Shown: positions 1,973 through 34,000 of the stretch, in pieces
Numbering within the stretch: position 1 is the first letter of the stretch
How the letters are laid out: each line of letters starts with the position of its first letter
Origin: Escherichia phage JEP8
Reading direction: 5' to 3' (one strand)
Length of the DNA: 64,000 bases
Sequence record: MT764208.1
Notes under the pieces: generated by a model
The model's input: the letters and a program-made list of their open reading frames with translations, nothing else
What the model was told of the DNA's origin: nothing
The model's database searches: none
Made by a program: the position numbers and the translations under genes

Positions 1973-4741
1973 ATGGCAGATTTAAGCAGAATCCAATTTA
2001 AACGTACTAGCACTAAAGGCCGTCGACCTGATGCTGGTACGATGAATCCGGGGGAATTGGCAATCAACCTTGCGGATCAATATCTTCTTACTAAAAATGA
2101 TTCCGGTGCTATTATCAATTTAAGTTGTCCTCCGGTTTATGACCGCGATGTTACAATGGCAGGTAAGGTTAAAGGTAATAATTATATCTTAAGTAAAACC
2201 GCTAACTATCTGGAAGATCAGACAGCGCGAGATCTTAACTACTTTGGTGCTTTCCGTACCAATGGTCTTGATGGTTTTCTCGAACTCACGCTAAACGTTC
2301 CTCATTCTTCTGGTGTTCAGCATGGTCGAGGATTTACTTTCCAGTATGGACACACTGGATCGCGTGTAGAAACTTATGGCTATAATAAAGAAGGTCAAAA
2401 AGCATTTAGCTATAAAATGTATCATGAAGGTGATAAACCAACTCCAGGAGAATTGAACGTTTATAGCAAACAAGAAGTTGACCGTATGTTTGTTAAGAAC
2501 GTTAAACTTGCTACATCTCCTAGTGATATCGTTGAAGGCTATTTTAAATTAGCAACTGCAATGATTCCACAAAACGGTCTTAGCGTATTTTTCCGTATTC
2601 ATGGTGGTAACGGATATAACGTTACTGCATACGATCAAGTTGATATTGTAGAAATTGTTATTCGCAGTGGAAATGGTCGCCCTAAAGGTGTTAACGTTAT
2701 TGCATATCGCCGAAATACAAACAAATCATTTGATGTTTTGGCTGTTAATACTTCTGGTGATAACTATGATATCTATGTGAAATATCAGCGTTACACTGAT
2801 AACGTTATTGTTGAATTTGGTAAAAGTGTTGGTGTTAATCTGGTAGTTCATGACGTTCCAGATTTTGTTGCTGATCGTCCTGCTGGCGATAATGTTATTG
2901 GCGGTCGCGCGGTAACTCTTTTTAATACTGAAAATAAACGTGGTGTGTTAAGTTTTGATGATAACACACAAAACAGCTATGACATTGTTCACTTGAGTAA
3001 TGATAGGGGTACAGGACGAAAATATATTCGTAAATTCCGTAGCAACTATAATGAAATGATCTGGCATGAGACGGTTCAAGGTGCTACTTATCGTCTGGCT
3101 ACTGGTGCAACTGATGTTCAGGATATTCTAACCGTTGAATCTGTTAGCTCAATTTCTGGAACTCATAAAGGTAATATTACTTCTGGTCGTATGCTGTTAA
3201 ATGGTGGTAGTAATGTTATTACCTTGCGGCGTCCTGCTGGTCAATCCAACCATATTGCGTTTCAAGATAATCGTACTGGAGATATTACCCGTCAAGGATG
3301 GATCGGTTATGCCAATGCTAATACTAACGTTTTTGAATGGTATAGTGATGTAGGTGGCAGTTCTATTCGTCAACATATCGACGGACAGATCGAATTTCAG
3401 ACAGGTAGCATGAAGCGAGTTTATACTAACGGACAATTCATTTCATTATATGCCGATGGCTTCCGTACTGTATATGGTAACTATGGTTCATGGTGGCGAA
3501 ATGACGGTAGTAACGTTTATCTGATGAGCACAAAATCAGGCGACACTATGGGTCCGTGGAATACCTTTAGGCCGTTCATCTATAGCCTAGCCAATGGTAA
3601 CGTTACATTGGGGGGTAGTGATGCTGGCAACCATTTAATGCGTCTCAATAATGAAAGTAAACGAGTTGAAGTGAACGCAACCACACATCTTGGAAGCAGA
3701 CTGTATTGGGAACGTAACGACGAAGGATCGAAATCTGTATTCTTTGTTAAATCTTGGGGTAATGAAACTCGCGCTCAAGTGTGGGAACTTGCAGACGAAA
3801 CAAGCTATCATCTATATTCTCAGCGTGATTCTAACGGATCGATTCAATTTCGTGTTGCTGGTAGTTTGGAAACTGGAGGCCGCGCCCAGATTAATGGCGA
3901 TTTGGTCGTTACTAATGTTCTTCGTACAAATAACCAAATACAGATTTATAGAGATAACAACAAAGAGATCTGGTTTAAAGATGCTAATGGTACTAACCGT
4001 GGTGTTATCTGGGGAGATGGTGGCGGCAAAATGAGATTGCGTAACTATTCTGGTGGAGAATATGACCATGTGTTCGAAGCTGGTATGATTCGCCTTGAGC
4101 GTGGTTACGCCAATGGACAAGGTGCTGGGTTGATTCGCGGAGAAGTACAAGGTGGAGCATGGTCTGAATGGAGAACTCGCGCTGCTGGCTTATTGGTTGA
4201 CTGTCCAAATGCTCAAACTTCCGCATATAACGTATGGAAAGCGACCAAATGGGGTTTAGACCACATCGCGGCAATGGGTGTTCATGTTCCTAACGGTAAT
4301 GTTGGTAACTCTATTGCGCGTCTGCATGTTGGTGGCACTAACTTTGACTTTAACGCCTCCGGTGATTTCCAGGCAGGTCGTAACGGTAATTTTAACGATG
4401 TTTATATTCGCTCTGATGCTCGCCTTAAAATCAATAAGGAAGAGTATAAAGAGAATGCCACCGATAAAGTTAATCGCTTGACTGTGTACACCTACGATAA
4501 GGTTAAGTCTTTGACGGACCGCACTGTTATCGCTCATGAAGTTGGTATTATTGCTCAGGATCTTGAAAAAGAATTGCCGGAAGCAGTAACAACTTCTAAG
4601 ATCGGCGATCCTGATAAGCCAGAAGAGATCTTAACAATTTCTAACTCTGCTGTCAACGCTCTTTTAATTAAGGCGTTTCAGGAAATGAGCGAAGAATTGA
4701 AAGCCGTTAAAGCTGAACTAGCGGAACTTAAAAAGAATTAA
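1973..4741 (+). CDS. 37: long tail fibre distal subunit gp37 with C-terminal intramolecular chaperone (peptidase S74-type) domain
   Basis: N-terminus MADLSRIQFKRTSTKGRRPDAG..GELAINL resembles T4 gp37 MATLKQIQFKRSK..GELAINL; last 108 aa carry SDARLK..IAQDLEKELPEAV as in endosialidase/T5 fibre chaperone domains. Confidence 0.85.
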   Translation: MADLSRIQFKRTSTKGRRPDAGTMNPGELAINLADQYLLTKNDSGAIINLSCPPVYDRDVTMAGKVKGNNYILSKTANYLEDQTARDLNYFGAFRTNGLDGFLELTLNVPHSSGVQHGRGFTFQYGHTGSRVETYGYNKEGQKAFSYKMYHEGDKPTPGELNVYSKQEVDRMFVKNVKLATSPSDIVEGYFKLATAMIPQNGLSVFFRIHGGNGYNVTAYDQVDIVEIVIRSGNGRPKGVNVIAYRRNTNKSFDVLAVNTSGDNYDIYVKYQRYTDNVIVEFGKSVGVNLVVHDVPDFVADRPAGDNVIGGRAVTLFNTENKRGVLSFDDNTQNSYDIVHLSNDRGTGRKYIRKFRSNYNEMIWHETVQGATYRLATGATDVQDILTVESVSSISGTHKGNITSGRMLLNGGSNVITLRRPAGQSNHIAFQDNRTGDITRQGWIGYANANTNVFEWYSDVGGSSIRQHIDGQIEFQTGSMKRVYTNGQFISLYADGFRTVYGNYGSWWRNDGSNVYLMSTKSGDTMGPWNTFRPFIYSLANGNVTLGGSDAGNHLMRLNNESKRVEVNATTHLGSRLYWERNDEGSKSVFFVKSWGNETRAQVWELADETSYHLYSQRDSNGSIQFRVAGSLETGGRAQINGDLVVTNVLRTNNQIQIYRDNNKEIWFKDANGTNRGVIWGDGGGKMRLRNYSGGEYDHVFEAGMIRLERGYANGQGAGLIRGEVQGGAWSEWRTRAAGLLVDCPNAQTSAYNVWKATKWGLDHIAAMGVHVPNGNVGNSIARLHVGGTNFDFNASGDFQAGRNGNFNDVYIRSDARLKINKEEYKENATDKVNRLTVYTYDKVKSLTDRTVIAHEVGIIAQDLEKELPEAVTTSKIGDPDKPEEILTISNSAVNALLIKAFQEMSEELKAVKAELAELKKN

Positions 4742-4781
4742 GGAAACTCCCAGGGAAGGGAACTACTAAGGAGAAACGGCT

Positions 4782-5021
4782 ATGGTCTATAATATCGTCA
4801 TTGGCGCTTTGTCTAATTTCGGAATGAAATTATTGTCAAAGTTAATTAGTGAAAAGATGCTCACTAAAATTTTCTTCTATTGCGCTCGTCGTCTTGCGGC
4901 TTATACCAATACGCCAATTGATGATCGTTTTGTGGAAGAACTTTATAAGGAGTTTAATAAAGATCAGTCAGAAGATAGTAACGAGCAAGATAAATCTAGT
5001 GATAGTCAACTACCTAAATAA
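4782..5021 (+). CDS. small hypothetical protein (79 aa) between gp37 and holin
   Basis: AAGGAG Shine-Dalgarno 8 nt upstream of ATG; hydrophobic N-terminus, acidic C-terminus; no recognised homolog. Confidence 0.45.
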   Translation: MVYNIVIGALSNFGMKLLSKLISEKMLTKIFFYCARRLAAYTNTPIDDRFVEELYKEFNKDQSEDSNEQDKSSDSQLPK

Positions 5022-5054
5022 GAGTACACTGTCATAGTTATCTTAGGGCATTAT

Positions 5055-5711
5055 ATGCAAGTTTCTGAAAAAGGGAAAGACTTTGCTATCTCAAATGTCC
5101 TGCGCGCTATTTTCACAACTAAAAGCACGGAGTTGCTCGTACTTCGTGTTTTTGCTGCCGTCGTGTTGTCTATATTGGCATTTGTCGTTTATAGTAAAAA
5201 CGAGTTATTTGCGCTTTATAAAGAGACTCGTTATGAGACTTATGCTCACATTCTCCAGGTAGAGAAAGACCGCAATTTTGATAATGCAGCACAGGAGCAG
5301 TTACAGATAGTTCATGTGTCGGCTGATGCCGATTTTTCTGCTGTTTTTAGTTTTCGTCCGAAAAACCTAAACTATTTTGTTGATTTGGTGGCATATGAAG
5401 GAAAGCTACCACATACAATCGATGAAAAGAATTTAGGCGGATTCCCTATCAATAAAACGAGTGAAGAATATCGTAGACATCTTTTAGGTAAATCATATTT
5501 TACCGATAAAGATTTCCAGTATATTCCATCAAGAGAAAAGAAATTAGAGAATATCGATATAGGTTTCATGTATTCTTGTCCTATATTCAATCTCGATAAT
5601 GTCTATTCTGGTAGTATCGCCATTTCATGGAAGAATAAACCGGATATTGACATTGAGAATTTAGATACTCTTTGCAATCAATCTGCCAGAATCCTCGGAA
5701 GGATTAGATAA
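5055..5711 (+). CDS. t: holin t (218 aa)
   Basis: Same length as T4 holin; shared blocks EQLQIVH, SADADFSAV.SFRPKNLNYFVD, AYEGKLP, YSCPxFNLDN, ARILGR. Confidence 0.9.
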   Translation: MQVSEKGKDFAISNVLRAIFTTKSTELLVLRVFAAVVLSILAFVVYSKNELFALYKETRYETYAHILQVEKDRNFDNAAQEQLQIVHVSADADFSAVFSFRPKNLNYFVDLVAYEGKLPHTIDEKNLGGFPINKTSEEYRRHLLGKSYFTDKDFQYIPSREKKLENIDIGFMYSCPIFNLDNVYSGSIAISWKNKPDIDIENLDTLCNQSARILGRIR

Positions 5712-7493: not shown

Positions 7494-7685
7494 TCACTTA
7501 TCGTTAAGAAGTTCTAAAACTTTCTGTCGTACTTTGTCAATATTAGTTGATTCAAAAACTGTACGGTATCCCCAGCTTTGACCGTATGAGCGGTTGCAAT
7601 CTCCATATCCCCATTGTTCAACCTGATAGTATTCAAGGAATGGGTGCTGCCGAACTATGATACCATCGCGATTAAAAATTACCAT
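7494..7685 (-). CDS. hypothetical protein (63 aa)
   Basis: GAGGA Shine-Dalgarno before ATG. Confidence 0.5.
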   Translation of the reverse strand: MVIFNRDGIIVRQHPFLEYYQVEQWGYGDCNRSYGQSWGYRTVFESTNIDKVRQKVLELLNDK

Positions 7686-7708
7686 AATATAATCCTCACG
7701 TCAACAAC

Positions 7709-8007: not shown

Positions 8008-8766
8008 TTACTTGCAAACGTATTGGTCTACATCAATTGCTCCACCGAATGTAGGATGACGTTTTTCAAATCGAATAGTTCCGTCGTTTGGTTCGAAAAC
8101 GGAGTATTCATATAGATCTTTCTTGCCAACATTCTTATAAAACCCGCCTTTAGTCATAACGGTTTCTTGTACGTTTGCTTTGTGTACGTTGTATTCATCA
8201 ATGTATACAAAATCAACCATCTTCCCATTTTTAATTGTTACTTTAAGATCACCCGGTTGATTTCCATATTTGGCATACAGTGGCGCTTCTTTAATTTTTG
8301 TGGAAATTCCATCTTTCATACTCCACTCATAACGAACGGTGCATTGATAGGTAAAAGTTTCGACCTTCGGTTCTTCTACCACTTTTGCTTCCTGTTTCTG
8401 TTGTTCTTCTTCAACCTTTGCAGAAGTCTCTGAATCGCTTTCTGACGAGGTTTCTTCTTTAGGTAATACATTCATCAAGTTTTGGATTTGAGCGTTATAT
8501 ACAGCCTCCAGTGGCTGAATCTGCCCGATATTGATCATTGTATCACGAACAGTTTTATTCCAGTTTCGTTGCTCTTGTTTCAGAGACGGATCAATCTTAA
8601 CAGCCTTAACATACACTTCATGAAGTTTAGAGTCCAGTGCGGAGATAGACTCATTAGCACAAATAAACTTCTCTGATTTGGTAGTAGCTTTAGCGCAATC
8701 AAAGGACGCAGCATTAGCACCGAAAGCAGTAGCGGAAAGAACGATAGCAGCGATAATGTTTTTCAT
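8008..8766 (-). CDS. secreted protein with LprI/DUF1311-like (lysozyme-inhibitor-like) N-terminal domain
   Basis: Signal peptide MKNIIAAIVLSATAFGANA then SFDCAKATT..EKFICANESISALDSKLHEVY..QRNW, the two-Cys DUF1311 pattern. Confidence 0.6.
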   Translation of the reverse strand: MKNIIAAIVLSATAFGANAASFDCAKATTKSEKFICANESISALDSKLHEVYVKAVKIDPSLKQEQRNWNKTVRDTMINIGQIQPLEAVYNAQIQNLMNVLPKEETSSESDSETSAKVEEEQQKQEAKVVEEPKVETFTYQCTVRYEWSMKDGISTKIKEAPLYAKYGNQPGDLKVTIKNGKMVDFVYIDEYNVHKANVQETVMTKGGFYKNVGKKDLYEYSVFEPNDGTIRFEKRHPTFGGAIDVDQYVCK

Positions 8767-8800
8767 AATATATTCCTCAATGTTTTGTCTTGATGGGAGT

Positions 8801-8830
8801 ATCTTACTACTCCCTTAATCCTGTGTCAAC
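8801..8830 (-). promoter_or_regulatory. sigma70-like early promoter (-35 GTTGACA, 17 nt spacer, -10 TAAGAT) with GGGAGTA/TACTCCC palindrome flanking the -10
   Basis: Read on - strand; drives 8008-8766. Confidence 0.45.
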
Positions 8831-8836: not shown

Positions 8837-8992
8837 TTAAATTTCTTCTACAGTAAAGTCTTCAATGTTGTTGTGCTCGGCGAACGTTGCCAGACCAGCA
8901 TTCCATGCATCATCCTCAGAGAAGAATACACCGTAACGTTCATATCCTTTAGCGCCTTCAAATTTAACCATTAATTTGTGAGTATGTTTCAT
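8837..8992 (-). CDS. hypothetical protein (51 aa)
   Basis: Trimmed to ATG after AGGAG; the ORF-track extension runs through the promoter. Confidence 0.45.
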   Translation of the reverse strand: MKHTHKLMVKFEGAKGYERYGVFFSEDDAWNAGLATFAEHNNIEDFTVEEI

Positions 8993-9022
8993 TTTGATTC
9001 TCCTTCGTTGTCTTGATGAGTT

Positions 9023-9052
9023 TAGTATAGGGGATCGCCGATCCCCTGTCAA
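9023..9052 (-). promoter_or_regulatory. sigma70-like early promoter (-35 GTTGACA, -10 TATACT); spacer is the palindrome GGGGATCGGCGATCCCC with two GATC sites
   Basis: Exact 17 nt spacing; near-identical cassettes at about 49.5 kb and 59.2 kb. Confidence 0.5.
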
Positions 9053-9061: not shown

Positions 9062-9274
9062 TTAATTTTTACCCGCTCGTGCATTAATACGCATTTTCTG
9101 CATAGCCATGATCTGGCTTACTGCTTCTTCTTTACGTTTTTGCGTGATAACGTGACCAGATTCCGCAAACTCTCCCGCAACTTCTTCTACAATCTCGCGA
9201 ACTTGAGAACGTCCAAAGATGCGGTTTCCTTCGTAGCTCATAAATTCAGTCACTACTTGCTCAATAGATTTCAT
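9062..9274 (-). CDS. hypothetical protein (70 aa)
   Basis: Trimmed to ATG after AGGAGA. Confidence 0.5.
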   Translation of the reverse strand: MKSIEQVVTEFMSYEGNRIFGRSQVREIVEEVAGEFAESGHVITQKRKEEAVSQIMAMQKMRINARAGKN

Positions 9275-9303
9275 GTGATTCTCCTTTCGTTTGGTATGGG
9301 AGT

Positions 9304-9332
9304 ATAATACTACTCCCATTTCTTTACGTCAA
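9304..9332 (-). promoter_or_regulatory. sigma70-like early promoter (-35 GTTGACG, -10 TATTAT inside GGGAGTA..TACTCCC palindrome)
   Basis: 17 nt spacer. Confidence 0.45.
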
Positions 9333-9501: not shown

Positions 9502-9774
9502 TCACCAATCAAGAGCGCGTGTCTCTGCGTCTTCCCATGCTTGATCCATAACAGCCTTGAAAACATATTCTAGAGTATCATCTTTAGAGAATCCGAAGAC
9601 TTTAGACGGAATATCTTCGATTGCTACTCCCGCAACTTCTGCATTACGCGCTTGGCAATAATGCAACTCTAAGTTATCGAGATAGCGACCGCCTAATTTC
9701 TCCATATCATCCCAGCATTTCCAGTAACCTACTTTATCTGCAATTGCCAACACTTTGCTGTTTTCGTTGCACAT
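9502..9774 (-). CDS. hypothetical protein (90 aa)
   Basis: Trimmed to ATG after AAGGAG. Confidence 0.5.
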   Translation of the reverse strand: MCNENSKVLAIADKVGYWKCWDDMEKLGGRYLDNLELHYCQARNAEVAGVAIEDIPSKVFGFSKDDTLEYVFKAVMDQAWEDAETRALDW

Positions 9775-9805
9775 CTTTGATTCTCCTTTTGTTTGGTATG
9801 TGTGT

Positions 9806-9834
9806 ATTATGCAATGTTGGATTCTGTAAGTCAA
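9806..9834 (-). promoter_or_regulatory. sigma70-like early promoter (-35 TTGACT, -10 CATAAT)
   Basis: 17 nt spacer; the TGTGTATTATGCA-type -10 region recurs at 23.7, 61.3 and 62.4 kb. Confidence 0.45.
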
Positions 9835-9884
9835 CAACTTTTTAAAATAAAAAAGCCGACCACAAGGATCGGCTTAATAATCAG

Positions 9885-12528: not shown

Positions 12529-12547
12529 AGGCCGCTTTGCGCGGCCT
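12529..12547 (-). terminator. hairpin AGGCCGC-TTTGC-GCGGCCT followed by T-run on the - strand
   Basis: Perfect 7 bp stem. Confidence 0.4.
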
Positions 12548-14093: not shown

Positions 14094-16202
14094 TTAAAAT
14101 TTAACATTCTTAACCAGTTTCATAAAGTCTTGTGCGCGTTTGTCGTTATGCAGAATACGATACCAGTTATCTACAATATCATACAGTAACGGGCTATTCT
14201 CTTTAAACTTCGCACAAACTGCTTTAATTCGTTCGTTTGCTGCCGTGAATTTTTCATCACAGATCTTTTTAGTTTCTTCGTCCATAATCCAACGAGTAAT
14301 AAGGAGTAACTTGGAAACCTCTTTATTATAATGACGACCGTACAGTCTGTCAATAAATTCTGGAATACAGCGTTCTAATTCATCGTCATGAAACAACATA
14401 GTGATCACACCCAGATATTCGCCATACCCCAGATGATTGGTCTTAACCTTCTTAGCCAGACCAGCCAGCTTACCGCGAACAAATTCTAGCGCACATTCCA
14501 ATTGTTCGTCAACGAGATATTTTTGTGTCTCGTTACGGGTAATAATATACTTTGTTACCCCGAAGTAGTCAAGCGCCGTGTGTAATGTATTTTCATTATA
14601 GATCGATTGACGGCTACGGCTTTCGAATGCATCACCCACGCGGAACATGTGCAAGCCTGATAACTCGCGAATCTCTGCCGCTTTCATGTGATGGCTGGTT
14701 TTATGCCAACTGTCACCAATCTTTTCCATGATATACACGTTAGGCAGCTTGGGAGTAGCTTCACGTTGTGTACGCTCGGTCTTCTCCGGCTTAACTGCTT
14801 TAGCACGCAGATCATCGGCCTCTGATACCTTAATCACGGTCATTTCAGAATCATCATAATACTGTTTGATGTACTCGAAAGTCTCCATATGTTTTTCGTT
14901 GCGCTGACGGAACACAAGTACCTTTTTATTGATGCCGTATTCCTGGACCATGCCGTTAAGAGTCAGTGCACGCAGTTTCGGTTTATCGGTATCATCAATA
15001 AGACACGTAATATCTTCTTTATGCATCCATACAAAATGCGTAATGTTGTATTGACTGCTAACGAAAGCAGGGCGCAATTTACTGATTGTGTGACGAGTAC
15101 GATACAGAGTATACACCTGACCTTCTACGTCGTTAGGCGAATCTTTACCCGCATTCACAAACTTATTATAGATTGCTACCGGATCATCCCACTTCCCGAT
15201 CTTACCCATCTTGCTAATAATATTGCGTTGAGTCGATGAATACTCGCTCATAAATTGCGCAAGTTTACGCTCTGTTTTAATGTTGGCGATCTTTTCTTTA
15301 ACCTTTTCCAACATCATTTCATTGATTTCTGCAATACGTTTTTCGATGTTTGCTTTAGTCTCAATTGACAAGTGAACTTCTTCACGCGATGGCATCAGGT
15401 CCAGATCACCCAACTCAAAATTAATGTAAATGGTCTGGTGCTGGCGGTTTACAGCTTCTAACCATGTTCCGCGAACATATTCATACGGGATCGGATACTG
15501 AATCTTACCCATGATTGCATATACTACATAGGAATCGTTATCACGCCCATTGCAAACATAATAATTATCAAAGCTAGGGAAATAATTAATTTCGATTGCA
15601 TTGATATTAGGTTTGTGTTCCCCAAAATGACGCAGTACAAATTGCGCTTCTCGATGCCATGTCTGAATATCTTTTTCTTTCACCGGAATAGTGATTTTCA
15701 GACCATTGTCTTCATAGGTCGGTTCGTCGAAAATCTGCACCATTTTCGGCATAGAGTTTTGCACAAATGCCGTAAAGCCATAAGCGCGACCATTGTAATA
15801 GTTTACGATTGTAAAGGTGTCAGTGTAGCTATAAGCAGATTTCGCACCTAAACCAAAAGATCCGATATAATCATTAGTTTGGTCTTTTGTTGATTCAAAG
15901 TAAACCGTAAACAGTTGTTCTAATTCTTTCTTAGACGGAATACCCGTACCATAATCACGCACAGAGAAATAAGGTTCAATTGCGGTAGGCAAATGAATAT
16001 CAAACGGACGATCTAAGGTTCCGGCTTCTTTGTGAGTGTCGGTAGCATTGCACGAATACTCACGGACGCAAGCACGTTCACAATATTGATAAGTGTTCTT
16101 AGAAAGCACCATAAAAGCCTTGCTACTTGCTTTCAGTGAAAAATCAACCGCACCGCTCAAGTCACTGCCAAATACTTCTTCATTATCAATATGCATTTTC
16201 AT
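14094..16202 (-). CDS. rIIA: rIIA protein (GHKL-type ATPase fold)
   Basis: 702 aa; GSFGLGAKSAY ATP-lid-like motif; synteny with rIIB and gp39. Confidence 0.8.
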   Translation of the reverse strand: MKMHIDNEEVFGSDLSGAVDFSLKASSKAFMVLSKNTYQYCERACVREYSCNATDTHKEAGTLDRPFDIHLPTAIEPYFSVRDYGTGIPSKKELEQLFTVYFESTKDQTNDYIGSFGLGAKSAYSYTDTFTIVNYYNGRAYGFTAFVQNSMPKMVQIFDEPTYEDNGLKITIPVKEKDIQTWHREAQFVLRHFGEHKPNINAIEINYFPSFDNYYVCNGRDNDSYVVYAIMGKIQYPIPYEYVRGTWLEAVNRQHQTIYINFELGDLDLMPSREEVHLSIETKANIEKRIAEINEMMLEKVKEKIANIKTERKLAQFMSEYSSTQRNIISKMGKIGKWDDPVAIYNKFVNAGKDSPNDVEGQVYTLYRTRHTISKLRPAFVSSQYNITHFVWMHKEDITCLIDDTDKPKLRALTLNGMVQEYGINKKVLVFRQRNEKHMETFEYIKQYYDDSEMTVIKVSEADDLRAKAVKPEKTERTQREATPKLPNVYIMEKIGDSWHKTSHHMKAAEIRELSGLHMFRVGDAFESRSRQSIYNENTLHTALDYFGVTKYIITRNETQKYLVDEQLECALEFVRGKLAGLAKKVKTNHLGYGEYLGVITMLFHDDELERCIPEFIDRLYGRHYNKEVSKLLLITRWIMDEETKKICDEKFTAANERIKAVCAKFKENSPLLYDIVDNWYRILHNDKRAQDFMKLVKNVKF

Positions 16203-16216
16203 AATATAATCCTCAC

Positions 16217-16679: not shown

Positions 16680-16870
16680 TTTGATTCTCCTTTGTTACTA
16701 GATAACGAATTTGGTCTTGCATTGCGATCAGTTCCCAGCGTGCTACTTTCATCATGGAAACCGACTCTTTGAACATAATATTAGCTTTTTCCTTATTCCC
16801 TGTCAAGTAGATTTCTGCAATTTTTCACAAAATTTTTGAGTTTCTTCATTCTTAAACGGTTTCATATAAG

Positions 16871-17230
16871 TCAACCTTTTGTTTTCGATGGGGATATTAT
16901 GATATATCCCCGATCCAGTGTCAACAGATTTTTAATCTTTTTCAATGCATCCATTACTCGCTCTGCGATCAGTTCTCGTAAGCACTGATAACCATGATAT
17001 TTGATGGCAATGTCACGCAGATCATTAACCAGTTCCCGTACTTCATGGTCTTTCAAATCGTCTCTGTATTTCGATTTAACCGTGTCTTTAGGTGGATTTC
17101 TGATAACCTGAAAACCTTGTTCTGCAATCACTGCGGCTTCGCGCTGGCGTTCATGCTGTACTGTATTTTTGATCAGGTCTGCTTCCATGAACTTTGCCAT
17201 ACTCATCATCATGTTATTCTTTTTGCTCAT
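16871..17230 (-). CDS. hypothetical protein (119 aa)
   Basis: Trimmed to ATG after GAGGA; its 3-prime end overlaps a promoter cassette. Confidence 0.45.
   Translation of the reverse strand: MSKKNNMMMSMAKFMEADLIKNTVQHERQREAAVIAEQGFQVIRNPPKDTVKSKYRDDLKDHEVRELVNDLRDIAIKYHGYQCLRELIAERVMDALKKIKNLLTLDRGYIIISPSKTKG
16896..16924 (-). promoter_or_regulatory. sigma70-like early promoter (-35 TTGACA, -10 CATAAT inside GGGGATAT..ATATCCCC palindrome)
   Basis: 17 nt spacer. Confidence 0.4.
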
Positions 17231-17264
17231 TATTAAATCCTCATAAAAGAAAAGGGAGACTCCC

Positions 17265-17292
17265 ATTATAGAGAATCTCCCTTGTATGTCAA
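17265..17292 (-). promoter_or_regulatory. sigma70-like early promoter (-35 TTGACA, -10 TATAAT) followed by GGGAGACTCCC hairpin and T-run
   Basis: Immediately after the gp39 stop; the hairpin lies at the predicted transcript 5-prime end. Confidence 0.5.
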
Positions 17293-17295: not shown

Positions 17296-19119
17296 TTATG
17301 ATTGCATCCACGCTTTTCTGCGATCGGAATCTTCACTATAGAGCAAATCGAATAGCTCTTTATAGTTTTCTGGTAACGTGATGACCTCCATTACAGGATC
17401 GTTGATCACGCGATGATAGTCTGATTCTGTGAGTGATGCCAACCCTTTGATATATCGAATGTTATAGCCTTTGATATTGTCTCGATCGTTCTCGAAATCT
17501 TCTAGGTCATAATACCATCGAACATCGTCACCTTTCTTTGGTTCCGCAATGATAATAGGCGTTTTGATAAACCGGATTCGTCCATCTTCGAACAATTCAG
17601 GCCAACGTGCAAAGAAAGAGATCAGACTAGGCTTAATAGACCCGGTCCCGTCAGTATCAGCGTCTGTCATAATCGCAATATTTTTGTATTGCATAACTTC
17701 CAACGCATCAACACCAAATTGCAAACCAGTGATCGCCATGATGTTAAAAATTTCGGCGTTCTTAACGATCTTTGCCTCCGGTTGTTCCCACGTTGTAAGA
17801 GTTTTGCCTCGCAACGGGAAACCTCCATGTAAATCTTGATCACGTACAGAGATCAGATAGTTGATCGCGGAATCACCTTCCGTCAAAAACAGGGTAGTTT
17901 CTGCGTCAGTTCCAATAAGGTTAGCTTTAACGTGTTTTGCCACCTTAGCCCGTTTCGCTGCCTTTGCTGCCTTAGTCGCTGCCGCTTTATCTGCTGCCTC
18001 TTTGCGTGCCAGGACTACAGCAATAATAGGCATGATAATGTTTTCTTTCTTAGCAATGACTTTAGCCAGCTTTTTAAAATCAAGATCAATATGACGCTTG
18101 ATATCACCAGTTGGATTAGTCAATCGTTCTTTTGTCTGTGAATCAAAACGAAGGTTAGGCAATTCACGAACAATAAGAATACAGGTCAATCCAGACTTAA
18201 CCGCAGCTTTAGTAACATCAACCTTATATTCTTTCTTGATTCGTTTTACAATCTCTTCACAAAGATCATCTGTCACATAATCAACGTGTGTTCCCCCGTT
18301 TTTGGTAAACAGACCATTAGCAAAGGATACTGATTTAAAACCTTCTCCCTCGACCGCAGGAACTAGGGCAAGTGAAAAGTTTTTATCTTCAATGACAAAC
18401 GGGTCATCATTGTATAGTTTAGCATAGTCCTTGAACTTGCTGGTTATCTTTTTGCCATTAAACTTAAACGTGATCTTAGGAAAGATTACACTTAAGGAAT
18501 ACATACGGTCACAAATCACATCTGAAATTTCTTGTGACATGATCATGCCTTCAAAATGATCGAAATCAGGGCAGAATGTAACCTTAGTCCCTTTCAGCTT
18601 TGATGGTTTAGATGACCAACTAATATTTTCAGCACCATTGGTGCATTGTACGGTCAATTCATTCTCACCATCGCATGTCACACCAGTAAACCACGATGAG
18701 AAAAATGATGTGAGCGCGCTTCCTATCCCATTCATCCCCATAGTGACACGATTTGTATCATCAAAGTTAGATCCTGCTTTAGCTCGTGTCCATGCAGCCA
18801 CTGGTTGGGGAATCTGTTTCCCTTCTGGTGTAGTGACTATATGTTGTGGAATGCCGCGACCGTTATCTGTTACCGACACAATGTTATCTTTGATATCTAC
18901 GCTAATAACATTAGCGTATTCAAAATTAGTGCGGATCGCTTCGTCTACCGAGTTGTCGATAATCTCATCAATAATTTTAACTAGACCGGGAACATATGAT
19001 ACTTTGGTCCATTTTCCAAAAAGGAAACGATTATGTGATTCATAAGTCGTTGACCCTATGTACATAGAAGGTCTTTTAAGACAGTGAGCGCGATCATCTA
19101 ACAGCAAAAATTCAGACAT
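17296..19119 (-). CDS. 39: DNA topoisomerase II large subunit gp39 (GyrB-like, fused form, 607 aa)
   Basis: GHKL ATPase signature DEIIDNSVDEA and GRGIP; TOPRIM-like region; synteny. Confidence 0.9.
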   Translation of the reverse strand: MSEFLLLDDRAHCLKRPSMYIGSTTYESHNRFLFGKWTKVSYVPGLVKIIDEIIDNSVDEAIRTNFEYANVISVDIKDNIVSVTDNGRGIPQHIVTTPEGKQIPQPVAAWTRAKAGSNFDDTNRVTMGMNGIGSALTSFFSSWFTGVTCDGENELTVQCTNGAENISWSSKPSKLKGTKVTFCPDFDHFEGMIMSQEISDVICDRMYSLSVIFPKITFKFNGKKITSKFKDYAKLYNDDPFVIEDKNFSLALVPAVEGEGFKSVSFANGLFTKNGGTHVDYVTDDLCEEIVKRIKKEYKVDVTKAAVKSGLTCILIVRELPNLRFDSQTKERLTNPTGDIKRHIDLDFKKLAKVIAKKENIIMPIIAVVLARKEAADKAAATKAAKAAKRAKVAKHVKANLIGTDAETTLFLTEGDSAINYLISVRDQDLHGGFPLRGKTLTTWEQPEAKIVKNAEIFNIMAITGLQFGVDALEVMQYKNIAIMTDADTDGTGSIKPSLISFFARWPELFEDGRIRFIKTPIIIAEPKKGDDVRWYYDLEDFENDRDNIKGYNIRYIKGLASLTESDYHRVINDPVMEVITLPENYKELFDLLYSEDSDRRKAWMQS

Positions 19120-19125
19120 ATTATA

Positions 19126-19869
19126 TCATTCTCCGTCAGTTCGTTTCAGGTATTCCAACGCTGCATATAGTCTTTGCGGATCGTCTTTGAACATTCCTAA
19201 TCCGGCGTTACATTTTCCACAAAGAACACCTCTTATCTTACCAGTCTTATGATTATGGTCAAGATGTTTCCACTTTTGGCGTTTTCTCTCGCCGCATCGT
19301 TCATTTATGAATTTTACACCGCATATCTCGCAATTGTCAACTCTGTCTAAAATTTCTAACGCTTCTCGTTTTGTTATTTTTATACCATCTTCGGCGTGGT
19401 GATATGGTCTATCTAGTTCTCGTTCTCGTTTCTCAAACAATCGACACTCATCAGAACAATACTTTTGAGATGCGTTTATTGCAACAAATGGTTTACCACA
19501 TTTAGCGCATTCTCGTTCAATCTTTATGTTTTGTGCCTGATCCAACGATGCGCAACGAGAACAGCAAAATTTATGATAGCCTCTAGAGTATGTATGATAA
19601 TTTACAGGATTTGGGCATCTTGCACATTTAACTATTCCTGTTATTCCGTGGCGCAATCTATAAACAGCCTCGTTATATGGTTGTTGATTTCTGAGACCTC
19701 CATTACAGAACTTAAACTCATTCCTTATAATCTGAAATTCCGCAGGATACAATTTTTCCATTTCTGGAATTTTATTTTCTTTAAAAAGATTTGAGTTTAG
19801 TCTATTTCCGCTTTTCGCCTCCAGAACATCAACAATAAACTTTTTGATGTTCACTTTTTCTCTCTCCAA
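19126..19869 (-). CDS. putative homing endonuclease: zinc-finger N-terminus plus endonuclease VII-like domain (start TTG/GTG uncertain)
   Basis: Several CxxC pairs; C-terminal HLDHNHKTGKIRGVLCGKCNAGLG matches the endonuclease VII/HNH motif. Confidence 0.6.
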   Translation of the reverse strand: MEREKVNIKKFIVDVLEAKSGNRLNSNLFKENKIPEMEKLYPAEFQIIRNEFKFCNGGLRNQQPYNEAVYRLRHGITGIVKCARCPNPVNYHTYSRGYHKFCCSRCASLDQAQNIKIERECAKCGKPFVAINASQKYCSDECRLFEKRERELDRPYHHAEDGIKITKREALEILDRVDNCEICGVKFINERCGERKRQKWKHLDHNHKTGKIRGVLCGKCNAGLGMFKDDPQRLYAALEYLKRTDGE

Positions 19870-19957
19870 TACATAACATAACCATAACTTACTGCAACCG
19901 CCACAAAGACGGCTGCAACAATCATATTAAAAATTGAGTGATTGTCAAGTATATGAT

Positions 19958-22930: not shown

Positions 22931-23685
22931 TATAAACCTACCTTCGCTTTCATCAATTCAATCCACGACGCATCAATCGGAAGCCCGTATTTCACGCGTT
23001 CTTTTTGTGCTGGCGTTAAGTTCTCATACTTAGAAAGAGATTCAATCAAAACGCTGGTATATTTTAGCACGATTTCGGTATTGTTTGCAATAGCCTTAAG
23101 TTTTTCTTCTTTCTTGTTGATTTCGCTAAGGGCTTGCTTGAGATCTGCAATTTTCTGATAACGTTCTTCCATACGGAAGAGAGTATTTTTAATCGCTCGC
23201 TCGGCTGCCTCTGCTTTCTCCGGTTCGTTGTGCTTTTTATGGCGCTCGATTGCTAATTTCTTTTCTTCGATTGCCATTTCCTGATTTTTGATGCGATTCT
23301 CGTTAAGTTCGATCCACTCGATGTACTTCGCACGTAGGGCAATTTCATCATCAGAAAGTTTACCGTTAGTTCCTAGTTCCTGGATCTCTTTAAGAGATTC
23401 GATAGTGTGATTGCCACGGAAAGAATTGTATTTCAGTTTAACCGGAATTACATTGCCATCAACATATCCCAGATTGCAATCAATGCGCTCTAAGGAGAGT
23501 CCATCATCACCTTCACCGAAAGCCTCACCGGAATAGGCGCAATGAGTCTGACGGTAAATGTTACGCACAGTGACTAAGCTCATAGAGAAGTCTTTGTTGC
23601 GACGTGAAGCACCAGCCATGATAGAGTTCAGCCGGAAAACAACCAGCGCCAATTCTTCGTTAGATTTAAAAGCAAACAGTTTCAT
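22930..23685 (-). CDS. hypothetical protein (251 aa), C-terminal coiled coil; positional counterpart of T4 srd (not sequence-verified)
   Basis: ORF track; Shine-Dalgarno present; heptad-rich charged C-terminal half. Confidence 0.5.
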   Translation of the reverse strand: MKLFAFKSNEELALVVFRLNSIMAGASRRNKDFSMSLVTVRNIYRQTHCAYSGEAFGEGDDGLSLERIDCNLGYVDGNVIPVKLKYNSFRGNHTIESLKEIQELGTNGKLSDDEIALRAKYIEWIELNENRIKNQEMAIEEKKLAIERHKKHNEPEKAEAAERAIKNTLFRMEERYQKIADLKQALSEINKKEEKLKAIANNTEIVLKYTSVLIESLSKYENLTPAQKERVKYGLPIDASWIELMKAKVGL

Positions 23686-23713
23686 AATTGATTCTCCTTA
23701 GTTGGTATGTGTG

Positions 23714-23743
23714 TATTATTGTCTATCTGGTTTGTGCTGTCAA
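23714..23743 (-). promoter_or_regulatory. sigma70-like early promoter (-35 TTGACA, -10 ATAATA-like)
   Basis: TGTGTATTAT -10 region class. Confidence 0.4.
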
Positions 23744-23746: not shown

Positions 23747-24250
23747 TTAAATTAAAGAAAATTTGTAAATCTCTATCAGATCGCCATTACACGCGTAAAC
23801 TTCCTCGATCTCATCAAGGATCATGGTCGTCCCTGTCTTGTATATGCACTCGCGCTCATCTGCCAACATAGCATACAAAGACAGTCGAGTAGTCGGATTG
23901 TCATACTCTTTAGACACCACTCGGTCAATAGCATGTTCGTAATAATTCATGCAAGGCTTGGTAGGTTTTATTGCAATAATCTTTCCTGTTGCATAAACAT
24001 CGGTTGCAAAGTCCTCTGCTGTTGATTGCAGTGGCGTAAAGCTCATAGGACGCTCTACAACGAAAGAATCGCCTACAATTAAGGTATCCAGCTTACGGCC
24101 TTCTCTTTTGCTCACACCGCGATACAAGGCTTCATGATGCACTAACCGCTCAGTCTTTTCAATCAATCCATTAAGGATCGACATATCGATATTTTCTTTA
24201 GAGTTCATCACCTCATCAATGATGTTAAGTTCTTCTGGTGTAAATTGCAT
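23747..24250 (-). CDS. putative ADP-ribosyltransferase (ModA/ModB/Alt-like), tentative
   Basis: Ordered YRG ... SFT ... ERE triad resembling the R-S-E ART motif; position after gp56 as in T4 mod genes. Confidence 0.4.
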   Translation of the reverse strand: MQFTPEELNIIDEVMNSKENIDMSILNGLIEKTERLVHHEALYRGVSKREGRKLDTLIVGDSFVVERPMSFTPLQSTAEDFATDVYATGKIIAIKPTKPCMNYYEHAIDRVVSKEYDNPTTRLSLYAMLADERECIYKTGTTMILDEIEEVYACNGDLIEIYKFSLI

Positions 24251-24259
24251 AATAAAAAA

Positions 24260-24283
24260 GCCTCCAATCTTTCGACGGGAGGC
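24260..24283 (-). other. RNA hairpin GCCTCC..GGGAGGC whose 3-prime arm contains the Shine-Dalgarno of the downstream ORF, followed by T-run
   Basis: 6 bp stem; sits between the promoter -10 and the ATG at 24250. Confidence 0.4.
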
Positions 24284-24312
24284 ATAATAAAACCATGATA
24301 GAGTAGTGTCAA
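24284..24312 (-). promoter_or_regulatory. sigma70-like early promoter (-35 TTGACA, -10 TATTAT)
   Basis: 17 nt spacer. Confidence 0.45.
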
Positions 24313-28923: not shown

Positions 28924-29235
28924 TTATCCCCCAACTACACGCATAACAAAGGTCTTAAGTTTATACCAGAAAGTTTCCTTTTTCAACTTTTCTTCTGCTT
29001 CTTTGATCTGCGCGGTTAACGCCTTAATGATGTGAGGATATACCACATCACGATCTGACGGCGTGGAGTAGTCGACCACAATACCTTTAGTGTCTGGATC
29101 GTATTCAACATTATGAATATAGACAATATGATGTTCTCCCTCTTCATCAACAATTATCAGTTCCTGAATAACTGTCTTCATTGCTTCTTGAATCAAGCCG
29201 TGTGCTTCTTCTAAACTTGTTGGTTTCTTATCCAT
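28924..29235 (-). CDS. hypothetical protein (103 aa), positional counterpart of T4 gene 40
   Basis: GAGAGGA Shine-Dalgarno. Confidence 0.5.
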   Translation of the reverse strand: MDKKPTSLEEAHGLIQEAMKTVIQELIIVDEEGEHHIVYIHNVEYDPDTKGIVVDYSTPSDRDVVYPHIIKALTAQIKEAEEKLKKETFWYKLKTFVMRVVGG

Positions 29236-29261
29236 AATATAATCCTCTCAGTAAAAATCTC

Positions 29262-29290
29262 ATTTTACTACTTTAATTATTCTATGTCAA
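29262..29290 (-). promoter_or_regulatory. sigma70-like early promoter (-35 TTGACA, weak -10 TAAAAT)
   Basis: 17 nt spacer. Confidence 0.35.
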
Positions 29291-30053
29291 CAAATTTCCA
29301 ATTTGGAAAGTCTGGACACATACAACGACGGCGAACGGTTCCGCGCTCGTTTCCTAGTACCTTAGATACTTCCGATACAGATTTATAGATCACACCATCA
29401 ACAGATACAGCCTTTCGGTCTTTTCTGTTTTGTTTCTTGCTCTTTTCTCGTCTGGCTTCGACATTCTCCGAATCATTCCATTGTCTCTTTGCTGTCTCGC
29501 GGGAAGATATTGTCTTTTGTTCTTTAACAATATCTTTAACAAGTTGTTCTTGTCCTGTTATCTTCGCCCACACATTAACAGACTGAATAGCATTAGCCTC
29601 ACTCATTCCCCAACGTTTACCGGATATATTCTTACGACGAACGCGTAGAAATTCGTTAAAGACTTCTTCGCATTGGTGCATATAATCACGAAAACCATAT
29701 TTCTTAGCCCATGCCTCTTTAATTGCACCAGACATATTTTCGGCAATACGTCTACGCACCCATGCATACTCCTTATTATTGCGACCGTGACTGGTCATAC
29801 ACATCATACGTGCAGCCATAATAAGACCAACATTCTTAGGATACATTTTAGCTAACAATAAGTGAGCGGTAAAGTGTTCCTCCGGTGTCAATGGAACGAG
29901 ATTTTCCTGTTCATCCGTGCCGCCCATACAACGTGGTTTAACGTGATGGATCTCTATGTATCCGGTCGGCTTCTCTCGGTTTCTTGCTCGTTCAATCAAT
30001 CTTTCGTAATGTGTTTTGTAGTTCATGTGATCCTCCATATGAAAAAGGGGCAT
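29277..30053 (-). CDS. free-standing HNH homing endonuclease (true start may be an internal ATG at 30026)
   Basis: EIHHVKPRCMGGTDEQENLVPLTPEEHFTAH is a classic HNH motif; inserted between uvsX and the gene 40/41 block. Confidence 0.75.
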   Translation of the reverse strand: MPLFHMEDHMNYKTHYERLIERARNREKPTGYIEIHHVKPRCMGGTDEQENLVPLTPEEHFTAHLLLAKMYPKNVGLIMAARMMCMTSHGRNNKEYAWVRRRIAENMSGAIKEAWAKKYGFRDYMHQCEEVFNEFLRVRRKNISGKRWGMSEANAIQSVNVWAKITGQEQLVKDIVKEQKTISSRETAKRQWNDSENVEARREKSKKQNRKDRKAVSVDGVIYKSVSEVSKVLGNERGTVRRRCMCPDFPNWKFVDIE

Positions 30054-32886: not shown

Positions 32887-34000
32887 CATTATGTTCAGCG
32901 CGGTTCGCTACTCCCGCGCCCGTTCTCTTGCGAACTGCTACATGTCACCATGTAGATCAGACTATATCACATTCTCATAGAGAATCCTGCCATTTCGAAT
33001 CGCTTGATTCTACTCTACTCGGTTCGTTACCCTTTCGATAGTCGTTGAACAACTGCATCTTTAAGCTCATTTTGATCAAACGGTGTTCTCTTACAGTACC
33101 CGCTATAATTCTTAGCAAAAGGTTTCTTCTTACCAAAGATCTCTTTTCCTGAATTATGTGCTTCAACAAGAAAATTCACCATTTCATCAAATGTGAAACT
33201 TGCAAATTTAGCATAAGTTTCATTACGTTTTGACATTATTTTACTCATAACTTCCGGTCGTTTAGACGCTGAATTTTCGCGTTTCTCGCCAGTATTAAAT
33301 GATACCAACTCACCGGAAACATATCTAGGATCATCACAACTAACTCTAAACCGATTTCCTTCATTATCCTTAACGATAACAGTATTCTTTAGCTTTTCTG
33401 CCATAGAATCAAGACCTTTTCGTATAGTGTCCTCATCAGCCCCGAAATATTTCTTTCCGCTCATATCGGTTCTGGCTTTTCCGGTCTTGTTTTCGGATAT
33501 TTTCAGTCTAACTTCCTCTCGCTTGGCTGGGTTATTGTCTCCAGCGAATGCATCTTTGGTTAACGCCTTCACTTTATCGTCATAAGATCCTCTAGAGATG
33601 AAAGCATATGCTCTCTTGCATTCACCGTTATTGAATATTAAGCACAATAACCGATGCGCCTCGACGTGGTCTTCAAACTTAAGCCTAACAAGATTCCATT
33701 TATCTAACCGATATTCAGGGAACATTGACTTCGGGCATATATGATGCACCTCGGAATATTCTTCACCCTGATACGGATTAGACACCAGTTTAATGTAGTC
33801 GTTTAATGCTTCCTCGTTATGTATTTCGTACTTTCTTAAAATGTCTTTCATCTCGCGCCTCCAATGTATATCAATATCTATATACATTATAAGACACGTT
33901 AGCTCAAAATGCAACTGCTGCTGATTGTCTCCTTAGAGATTTCCCAGCAATTAAGCAGGTTATTCGATCACTGTCACCAGTGAAAGCCCCATATCAGTTT
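32887..34000 (-). mobile_element. group I intron (1114 nt) in gene 43 carrying an HNH homing-endonuclease ORF
   Basis: P (AAUUGCUGGGAAA), Q (AAUCAGCAGC), R (GUUCAACGACUA), S (GAUAUAGUCUG) elements; IGS GGGG pairs with exon CCCU; 5-prime exon ends in U and intron ends in G; P9-like hairpin with GUGA loop. Confidence 0.75.
33027..33851 (-). CDS. intron-encoded HNH homing endonuclease (274 aa)
   Basis: GGAGG Shine-Dalgarno then ATG (MKDILRKYE); EVHHICPKSMFP..WNLVRLKFEDHVEAH HNH motif; 3-prime end overlaps intron R element. Confidence 0.75.
   Translation of the reverse strand: MKDILRKYEIHNEEALNDYIKLVSNPYQGEEYSEVHHICPKSMFPEYRLDKWNLVRLKFEDHVEAHRLLCLIFNNGECKRAYAFISRGSYDDKVKALTKDAFAGDNNPAKREEVRLKISENKTGKARTDMSGKKYFGADEDTIRKGLDSMAEKLKNTVIVKDNEGNRFRVSCDDPRYVSGELVSFNTGEKRENSASKRPEVMSKIMSKRNETYAKFASFTFDEMVNFLVEAHNSGKEIFGKKKPFAKNYSGYCKRTPFDQNELKDAVVQRLSKG

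Follow-up and report, generated by a model that had tools for sequence, protein, structure and literature searches.

The minus-strand gap between gene 39 and the open reading frame (ORF) that follows it, the locus shown above, raises the question of why a strong stem-loop should sit within a near-perfect sigma-70 promoter, and in which RNA it would act. We addressed this question in the 64 000-nt stretch of Escherichia phage JEP8 to which the locus belongs (MT764208.1; the window). A first-pass annotation had cited this site as one of six examples of a recurrent intergenic module, composed of a rho-independent terminator, a sigma-70-like promoter, a short GC stem-loop at or just after the transcription start and a Shine–Dalgarno (SD) sequence with its ATG. 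All six cited sites do contain the elements that it named, at the positions where it had placed them. The single four-part layout, however, was not confirmed: besides the promoter and the SD with ATG there is one hairpin at most, and no cassette combined a terminator with a second hairpin. At the locus shown here, the supposed separate terminator and start hairpin turned out to be one and the same structure, a 13-bp stem whose loop is the −10 hexamer TATAAT and which is followed by the T-run TTCTTTTAT. This cassette is 100% identical in the phages Phi1 and RB49.

Genomic context of the window

BLAST searches with three large pieces assigned the window to Krischvirus, the RB49/Phi1-like T4-type 'pseudo-T-even' coliphages, with 94–98% identity to Phi1, RB49, GEC-3S and ∼55 other records and an identical match to none of them. 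According to the Phi1 map, the plus strand carries the late genes 36, 37 and t (1–5711), and everything from ∼5746 to 64 000 is encoded on the minus strand, in the gene order rIIB, rIIA, 39, dda, modB, 61, 41, uvsX, 43, 45, 46, 47, 55, nrdG, nrdD and gene 38, together with small ORFs. A greedy ORF model had misplaced several gene starts (e.g. 59111 and 16776), and gene boundaries were corrected against the Phi1 annotation. On the same map, the gene downstream of 17 of the 24 cassettes described below is a hypothetical ORF. Naming each cassette by the first position of its −35 hexamer, gene 43 is flanked by cassettes 35263 and 31420, and cassette 50677 follows nrdD.

Near-consensus promoters on the coding strand

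At its default threshold (at least 9 of 12 matching positions), a consensus scanner found promoter-like sites to be slightly to modestly over-represented and terminator-like sites not notably so. We re-scored the matches by threshold and strand and found the promoter signal in the high-scoring tail. Matches of at least 11/12 numbered 33 on the coding strand and 0 on the other strand, where 200 dinucleotide shuffles gave an expectation of 1.0 ± 1.0; the intergenic modules thus recur far beyond chance. Perfect 12/12 matches were found nine times on the coding strand and not at all on the other (0.02 expected from 200 dinucleotide shuffles), and the TTGACA hexamer itself 49 versus 7 times. With the rough gene model, non-coding sequence made up 6.7% of the region and contained 16 of the 33 strong matches. 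After correction of the gene boundaries, at least 11/12 was reached by 18 of the 24 intergenic cassettes and by 15 intragenic matches.

Globally, the minus-strand early region holds 24 intergenic near-consensus sigma-70 promoters (score 10–12 of 12, spacer 16–17 nt), all of them oriented in the direction of transcription (Table 1). The 20 nt upstream of the −35 hexamer (−20 to −1 relative to it) have an AT content of 71%, compared with 60% in the window overall, and TTGACA is repeatedly preceded by AAAAAGTTG or AAAATTAG. Further downstream, AAGGAGAATCAAAATG or GAGGATTATATTATG occurs 20–38 nt past the predicted transcription start (+1) in 23 of the 24 cassettes.

Table 1. Early cassettes and stand-alone hairpins of the window. 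All features are on the minus strand; coordinates of the elements run 5′ to 3′ on that strand, and the ATG is given by its first position. Classes are defined in the text.
Class	Region	−35	Hairpin	−10	SD and ATG	Context and remarks
A	63654–63753	63714–63709	63753–63728 (GAAA loop), T-run	CATAAT 63691–63686	AAGGAG; ATG 63656	Upstream of ORF084 homologue; orthologous in Phi1, RB49 and GEC-3S; promoter and terminator annotated in GEC-3S record
A	61243–61340	61302–61297	61340–61319 (UUCG loop), T-run	61280–61275	ATG 61245	Between gene 38 and ORF078 homologue
A	50618–50715	50677–50672	50715–50694 (GAAA loop), T-run	50655–50650	ATG 50620	Downstream of nrdD; repeat family D8
A	9772–9875	TTGACT 9834–9829	9875–9853, T-run	CATAAT 9811–9806	ATG 9774	
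B	59155–59228	59228–59223	GGGGATCGGTGATCCCC 59223–59205	TATACT 59205–59200	ATG 59157	Stem-loop in spacer; family D1
B	49455–49528	TTGACG 49528–49523	49523–49506 (GCGA loop)	TATACT 49505–49500	ATG 49457	
B	42023–42080	TTGACG 42080–42075	42075–42058 (GAAA loop)	TATACT 42057–42052	ATG 42025	Downstream of gene 47
B	8990–9052	9052–9047	9047–9029	TATACT 9029–9024	ATG 8992	
B (group)	35200–35270	35263–35258	Imperfect stem 35270–35241, brackets −35 and ends at −10	35240–35235	ATG 35202	Upstream of gene 43; early promoter in RB49 record
C	58487–58552	58552–58547	58541–58516	58529–58524	ATG 58489	−10 in loop
C	55265–55327	55327–55322	AUGGGAGUA...UGCUCCCAU 55314–55291	TAAAAT 55304–55299	ATG 55267	Family D2
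C	54355–54417	54417–54412	Decayed stem 54404	TAAGAT 54394–54389	ATG 54357	ACTCAC where relatives have ACTCCC (C-to-A)
C	53122–53182	53182–53177	53170–53149	53160–53155	ATG 53124	
C	17228–17292	TTGACA 17292–17287	17283–17252	TATAAT 17270–17265 (16-nt spacer)	GAGG; ATG 17230	Cited site, between gene 39 (topoisomerase) and ORF005 homologue
C	16865–16924	16924–16919	16911–16890	CATAAT 16901–16896	ATG 16865	Upstream of ORF004 homologue
C	9272–9332	TTGACG 9332–9327	9319–9296	TATTAT 9309–9304	ATG 9274	
C	8764–8829	8829–8824	8814–8795	TAAGAT 8806–8801	ATG 8766	
D	37199–37288	TTGACT 37288–37283	37253–37235 from predicted +1, TTTTT	37265–37260	ATG 37201	Between genes 45 and 44; early promoter in RB49 record
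D	31346–31420	TTGACA 31420–31415	31393–31365 (12 bp), no T-run	TATAAT 31398–31393 (16-nt spacer)	ATG 31348	Downstream of gene 43; early promoter in RB49 record
D	24248–24312	24312–24307	24283–24260, T6	TATTAT 24289–24284	ATG 24250	Upstream of modB
D-like	19889–19948	19948–19943	19921–19889	TATGAT 19926–19921		Just upstream of extra ORF with Endonuclease_7 domain
No local hairpin	62400–62472	62472–62467		CATAAT 62449–62444	ATG 62402	
Promoter only	23683–23743	23743–23738		AATAAT 23720–23715	ATG 23685	Upstream of srd; family D15
Promoter only	29233–29290	29290–29285		TAAAAT 29267–29262	ATG 29235	Upstream of gene 40, at 3′ end of inserted homing-endonuclease ORF
Stand-alone	62147–62162		Terminator hairpin, T-run			Intergenic, no promoter
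Stand-alone	52599–52621		Terminator hairpin, T-run			Upstream of nrdD
Stand-alone	43160–43187		Terminator hairpin (GAAA loop), T-run			Upstream of gene 47
Stand-alone	30045–30063		Terminator hairpin, T-run			Downstream of uvsX
Stand-alone	12529–12547		Hairpin, then T-rich tail			Intergenic

One hairpin per cassette, at variable positions

Counting imperfect stems, a hairpin is present in 21 of the 24 cassettes. There is one per cassette and its position varies: upstream of the −35 hexamer and followed by a T-run in class A (four copies), in the spacer or bracketing the −35 in class B (five copies), with the −10 hexamer in or near the loop in class C (eight copies), and just past the −10 in class D (four copies), with three cassettes having no local hairpin. 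A perfect-stem hairpin of −10 kcal/mol or stronger was found in 18 of the 24 intergenic cassettes, compared with 9% of random windows and one of the 15 intragenic promoters (p = 1.5e-14). The six cited hairpins have folding energies of −13.8 to −21.4 kcal/mol (z = −3.8 to −5.7), and none of 200 shuffles was equally stable. The three cited class A sites (50650–50715, 61275–61339 and 63686–63751) share a GC stem and a T-run, followed by GGTGTTGACA-16/17-(T/C)ATAAT, with GGTG before TTGACA. Lying ∼50 nt upstream of the predicted +1 and running into T-runs, class A hairpins have the arrangement of terminators. A U-tract directly follows the GC hairpin in eight of the 21 cassette hairpins and in five stand-alone hairpins; the other 13 cassette hairpins (class B, most of class C, and 31393) have none. 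A search of the predicted leaders for a second hairpin was negative. The complete window, scanned against Rfam at the gathering threshold, gave no match, hence no described RNA family over the cassettes.

Two sites involve the SD sequence itself. At 24283–24260 the hairpin reads GCCUCC...GGAGGC followed by U6, and the GGAGG that serves as SD of modB is part of the 3′ arm, as had been noted before for what was then called a putative ADP-ribosyltransferase gene. The sole basis of that name is the annotation as modB of the orthologues in Phi1 and RB49; Pfam gave no hit. In cassette 62472, pairing is possible across the whole promoter, between the AT-rich tract upstream of it and the leader with its SD.

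Hairpins lie mostly upstream of the predicted transcripts

We placed +1 seven nt after the −10 hexamer, at the conserved A of a recurring 'CAT' motif that is preceded by C residues; for this phage, it is a predicted position. It is in line with the preference of RB49 for C at −3 to −1, part of a consensus that agrees with 5′-end mapping (Nolan et al. 2006). A literature search for a Krischvirus transcriptome gave nothing relevant. With +1 seven nt past the −10, on which these counts depend, 16 of the 21 hairpins end at or before the start site, one ends at +6 and four lie downstream. The 3′ arm of class C hairpins ends 1–3 nt from the predicted +1 (within 1 nt in six of the eight copies). In three of the four class D hairpins, most of the 5′ arm is cut off by the predicted start site, and the only complete hairpin at a predicted +1 is 37253. 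Furthermore, the first-pass annotation had placed a stem-loop at or just after the start, and the predicted leaders of the cited examples proved unstructured: their folding energies of −0.2 to −6.9 kcal/mol (z = −0.7 to +0.8) are no better than those of shuffles, and the leaders of the three cited cassettes that begin with a terminator (−0.2 to −0.5 kcal/mol, z near 0) show no fold past the −10. With most hairpins ahead of the predicted +1 and no structure in the predicted leaders, the hairpin would generally be part of the transcript arriving from upstream and not of the cassette's own mRNA.

The stems carry marks of sense-strand RNA

Folding as RNA favoured the sense over the antisense strand in 25 of 29 hairpins. 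Because G·U pairs had been allowed on the sense strand when stems were searched for, this comparison was at risk of bias, and we therefore ran it again, adding flanks of 6 or 10 nt and counting G·T and A·C pairs on equal terms. The asymmetry held: with 6-nt flanks it was still 25 versus 4 (p = 3e-4), and among the stem pairs, both types treated alike, there were 24 G·T and 7 A·C. GNRA and UUCG loops are frequent and occur on the sense strand only; the loops include GAAA, in eight hairpins, as well as GCGA, GAUA and UUCG. The GNRA and UUCG loops, together with the greater stability of the sense RNA, fit a terminator or attenuator role. The stems carry marks of selection as sense-strand RNA, which favours this role over a purely DNA-level recombination signal.

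A repeat family with orthologues in related phages

In an unbiased search for direct repeats, the cassettes made up the leading families of the window (D1, 76 nt; D2, 56 nt; D8, 43 nt; D9; and others). Copies are 60–82% identical over 43–76 nt, including non-functional positions. We rejected an origin as mobile repeats of the MITE or REP type, since the copies lack terminal inverted repeats and target duplications, are strictly co-oriented with transcription and each surround a functional-looking promoter. Full alignments to orthologues in Phi1, RB49 or GEC-3S were obtained for 23 of the 24 cassettes, and the cited cassettes are 95–100% identical to those of Phi1 and RB49. Substitutions between orthologues are mainly located in loops and spacers, and two changes within stems convert G·U to Watson–Crick pairs. 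Hairpin-plus-promoter units also recur at unrelated Phi1 loci, and the GenBank records of GEC-3S and RB49 annotate promoters and terminators at the sites corresponding to ours.

Elements of this kind were defined as promoter-early stem-loops (PeSLs) by Arbiol et al. (2010, Genome Biol Evol 2:140, PMC2839356), who counted ∼52 in Phi1 and 51 in RB49. A PeSL combines a consensus sigma-70 promoter with an AT-rich tract, a stem-loop that often has runs of G and C, and the downstream gene's SD and ATG (PMC2839356). The AT-rich tract of PeSLs usually includes the upstream stop codon. Five subclasses were distinguished by the site of the stem-loop, which may lie between the boxes, overlap the −35 or the −10, or lie upstream of the −35 or downstream of the −10, and PeSLs were found to be concentrated upstream of ORFans, as well as flanking gene 43 and adjoining nrdD (PMC2839356). 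For RB49 and Phi1, Comeau et al. (2014, PMC4122927) give the consensus TTGACA-N17-TATAAT with a G(n)-loop-C(n) stem, which our cassettes fit. Indeed, all sequence features of PeSLs were found in the window, namely the promoter, the position of the stem-loop, the AT tract, the SD with ATG, the intergenic and co-oriented location, and membership in a repeat family. The window cassettes align with Phi1 PeSL206/205, 212/210 and 193/191. The Phi1 PeSL206/205 and 212(211)/210 sites are spacer-type cassettes; cassettes 9052 and 59228 are near-identical to these two sites, with a shared GGGGATC(N3)GATCCCC stem, and the stem-loop of 59228 is identical to that of PeSL212/210. The promoter strength of PeSL206/205 and the terminator activity of the GGGGATC...GATCCCC stem-loop of PeSL211/210 have been shown experimentally (PMC2839356).

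We therefore assign the cassettes, with a probability of roughly 93%, to the PeSLs of the RB49/Phi1-type T4-like phages, including a model in which the hairpin acts on transcription from upstream. The resemblance to PeSLs had been recognized in the first-pass annotation and was, if anything, understated, as PeSLs were defined in the phage group to which the window itself belongs and the cited copies are identical or near-identical orthologues. The cassettes are thus not new: work on this genus had already described and named them, and tested part of them, in 2010.

Proposed function of the cassettes

Under this model, host RNA polymerase with sigma-70 would fire at each cassette immediately upon infection. 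The stem-loop would form in RNA arriving from upstream and terminate or attenuate that transcription, so that each gene or gene group would become an insulated unit with a promoter of its own. With the hairpin upstream of, inside or flush with the promoter, the cassette's own transcript would usually carry neither a terminator nor a 5′ structure, and its leader would be short (about 23–28 nt, sometimes 35–38 nt), unstructured and A/C-rich, with a strong SD and ATG. At 24283, and by long-range pairing at 62472, the SD could be sequestered in read-through RNA and free in the transcript of the cassette itself. For the 13 hairpins without a U-tract, we infer termination by extrapolation from one published construct; they may be terminators as well.

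Arbiol et al. (PMC2839356) proposed that PeSLs serve as homology patches for ORF shuffling. In JEP8, the 40–80 nt of similar sequence between cassettes could likewise provide patches of homology for the gain, loss or swap of ORFs. Such a role of the cassettes in recombination of the JEP8 genome is weakly suggested.

Alternative explanations for the hairpins

The first-pass annotation had proposed that the hairpins are 5′-terminal stem-loops of the cassettes' own mRNAs, which would protect them from RNase E. The four class D hairpins lie downstream of the −10, as this would require, with the stem of 37253 starting exactly at the predicted +1, and a residual hairpin of −6.9 kcal/mol could form at the 5′ end of the 31420 transcript. 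Nevertheless, the proposal is very unlikely for the family, given that most hairpins end at or before the predicted start, that three of the class D copies would keep little of their 5′ arm past the start site, that the class A hairpins are followed by T-runs and lie ∼50 nt upstream of the predicted +1, and that folding of the predicted leaders at the cited sites did not surpass that of shuffles. RNase E protection would be relevant to one to four class D copies at best. Even less credible is the idea that there is no composite element at all, and that ordinary promoters and terminators are found close together since phage intergenic gaps are short. Class A does resemble a standard terminator followed by a standard promoter, and the five stand-alone terminators and three hairpin-less promoters show that both parts exist separately. 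However, in 13 cassettes the hairpin forms part of the promoter itself, occupying the spacer or having the −10 as its loop, and chance proximity accounts neither for the sequence identity between copies, which extends to non-functional positions, nor for the same hairpin-plus-promoter units at unrelated Phi1 loci, so that we regard this explanation as extremely improbable.

The stem-loops could also have been selected mainly as DNA, as cruciforms or protein sites that target recombination or cassette insertion, with any effect on transcription being secondary. Arbiol et al. (PMC2839356) reported PeSL mini-circles and speculated about a recombination protein that would bind the GGGG...CCCC motif. 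Several insertions and deletions (indels) in related phages are indeed found next to cassettes or hairpins: in phage W115, an HNH ORF just upstream of cassette 17292 separates its −35 from the stop of gene 39; an extra ORF of Phi1, ORF263.1, ends at cassette 9052, with the breakpoint just upstream (9065/9072); an extra HNH ORF of RB49, ORF040, adjoins hairpin 43187; and the uvsX terminator hairpin 30063 is separated by a homing-endonuclease ORF from promoter 29290, the promoter overlapping the 3′ end of that ORF. Of about 10 indels that distinguish the window from Phi1 or RB49, 3–4 abut a cassette, and the remaining ones are mostly homing-endonuclease or intron insertions or intragenic replacements. 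The indels are thus mostly explained by homing endonucleases, which need no PeSL, and this counts against stems that are mainly DNA elements. So do the strict co-orientation of every cassette with transcription and the strand asymmetry of stems and loops, for which a cruciform has no need. Overall, we consider selection mainly as DNA to be unlikely. There is a slim chance that the conserved GGGG...CCCC hairpin within the promoter, in addition to a terminator role, is recognized by a phage protein dedicated to the site-specific excision and integration of ORF-plus-PeSL mini-circles, which would amount to an integron-like gene-cassette system in a lytic phage.

Practical value

The practical value of the analysis lies in the corrected anatomy of the cassettes, with one hairpin each, usually outside the cassette's own transcript. 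The list of coordinates for 24 early promoters and the hairpins that would insulate them helps to define transcription units in Krischvirus phages that are candidates for therapy. The gain in annotation is small, because the public records of close relatives already mark promoters and terminators at these sites. A further small addition is the use of G·U pairs and GNRA/UUCG loops as evidence of selection on the sense-strand RNA.

Comparison with known systems

With the PeSLs of RB49 and Phi1, the cassettes share the phage genus, the TTGACA-N16/17-TATAAT promoter, the AT tract, a G(n)-loop-C(n) stem at variable positions, and the SD with ATG. Both lie between genes, in most cases ahead of ORFs with no known function, and also flank gene 43 and nrdD. 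Nothing essential differs; the window has its own neighbouring insertions and the decayed stem at 54404. The evidence from strand asymmetry and tetraloops is added here and is absent from the abstract and from sections 9, 13, 16 and 21 of Arbiol et al. (2010).

Class A hairpins, 17283, 37253, 24283, 19921 and the five stand-alone hairpins have the GC stem, stable tetraloop and T-run of canonical rho-independent terminators, whereas 13 cassette hairpins differ from these in having no U-tract and in lying physically within the promoter. The four class D cassettes share with the 5′ stabilizer stem-loops of the ompA type a GC hairpin near the transcript start. In contrast to ompA, most cassette hairpins are located upstream of the predicted +1 and would therefore be absent from the mRNA to be protected. 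Finally, the early promoters of T4 and the PeSL-like elements at T-even internal-protein loci, in PST/T4 and in nt-1/KVP40 likewise use an early promoter, a stem-loop and an SD as a repeated linker of small ORFs. These T4-type elements have a −35 of GTTTAC or TTTACW and weaker, AT-richer stems, whereas the JEP8 cassettes combine a near-perfect sigma-70 consensus with stems built from runs of G and C.

Repeated initiation modules and promoter matches within genes

On the - strand, we found two stereotyped translation-initiation modules, GAGGATTATATTATG and AAGGAGAATCAAAATG, each present in at least eight copies (examples in the table). Some of these copies lie at gene junctions that carry no promoter, and the ribosome-binding region is therefore itself a repeated module.

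Besides the intergenic promoter-early stem-loop cassettes (near-consensus sigma-70 promoter, one GC stem-loop, Shine–Dalgarno (SD) sequence and ATG), the window holds 15 further promoter matches within coding sequences that score at least 11/12 against the TTGACA and TATAAT hexamers. Every one of them is on the coding strand, and hardly any is accompanied by a hairpin. Two are perfect (12/12): one precedes the rIIA start by 80 nt and the other is inside rIIA. Counts of the TTGACA hexamer itself are 49 for the coding strand and 7 for the other. In the RB49 record, some of the intragenic matches (inside genes 41, 46 and ORF031) are labelled as hypothetical early promoters.

Features with example positions in the window
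Feature	Position	Strand	Remark
Module GAGGATTATATTATG, example copies	53122-53136, 54355-54369, 58487-58501, 29233-29247, 16200-16214, 7683-7697, 60942-60956	-	
Module AAGGAGAATCAAAATG, example copies	63654-63669, 8990-9005, 61243-61258, 23683-23698	-	
Intragenic promoter matches, examples	16311-16283, 14353-14325, 28197-28169, 39111-39083, 38093-38064	-	
247-aa ORF	19126-19869	-	Endonuclease_7 domain, E = 1e-16; upstream of gene 39
249-aa ORF	29277-30026	-	I-TevI DNA-binding domain and weak HNH match; between uvsX and gene 40

Variant cassettes

The cassette whose -35 element lies at 62472 (62400-62505, - strand) has no local hairpin. Here, an AT-rich tract 5′ of the -35 element (UUCUUAGAAAGUG) is able to form base pairs with the leader and its SD (CACUUUCUAGGAG), spanning the whole promoter, with a folding energy of -29 kcal/mol for the gap. 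This pairing would hide the SD only in read-through transcripts arriving from upstream. Elsewhere, a gene extends into a cassette: the ORF005 homologue (16871-17230, -) has 119 aa in the window, compared with 111 aa in W115 and 99 aa in both Phi1 and RB49, and its reading frame runs through the -35 element, stem-loop and -10 element (16924-16890) of the cassette that follows. A near-identical terminator hairpin, AAGCCGATCC(A/T)TGTGGTCGGCTT followed by a T-run, is found on both strands, at 9853-9875 (-) as part of an early-region cassette and at 220-242 (+) directly upstream of gene 36, in what is the gene 35/36 interval by the Phi1 map.

Gene content relative to related phages

Compared with Phi1 and RB49, the window carries two ORF-sized insertions (19066-19871 and 29250-30036). 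Their 247-aa and 249-aa ORFs look like free-standing homing endonucleases. The 3′ end of the 249-aa ORF contains a predicted promoter (29290-29262), which would allow gene 40 to be expressed again. Conversely, the ORF074 segment (∼215 nt) of Phi1, RB49 and GEC-3S is missing (59985-60061); because a 77-nt stretch aligns to both sides of the gap, the alignment suggests loss by deletion between repeats. Neighbouring small ORFs contain internal paralogous repeats, in the ORF049-051 region and in the goF-like ORF058/059 (47422-48805; 54050-54728).

A candidate group I intron in gene 43

The DNA polymerase gene 43 (31410-35202, - strand) is split by a 1114-nt insertion at 32887-34000, which contains a 295-aa ORF (33027-33914) and looks like an ORF-bearing group I intron. 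Its match to Rfam RF00028 (33198-32938; 31 bits, E = 1e-5) is under the gathering score; despite this, the conserved group I core motifs are found. The insertion interrupts the SLYPS polymerase motif at its Leu codon. The last bases of the 5′ exon and of the candidate intron are U and G, respectively, and a P1 helix could form by CCCU/GGGG pairing. In silico excision of 34000..32887 yields an 892-aa gp43 that is identical to that of Phi1 at 885 of 893 aligned positions (stop counted). RB49 and Phi1 lack the insertion. Phage ELT4 has a 100% identical copy, and ∼11 other Krischvirus records also contain the insertion, annotating the region as an HNH/NUMOD3 endonuclease together with two polymerase CDS.
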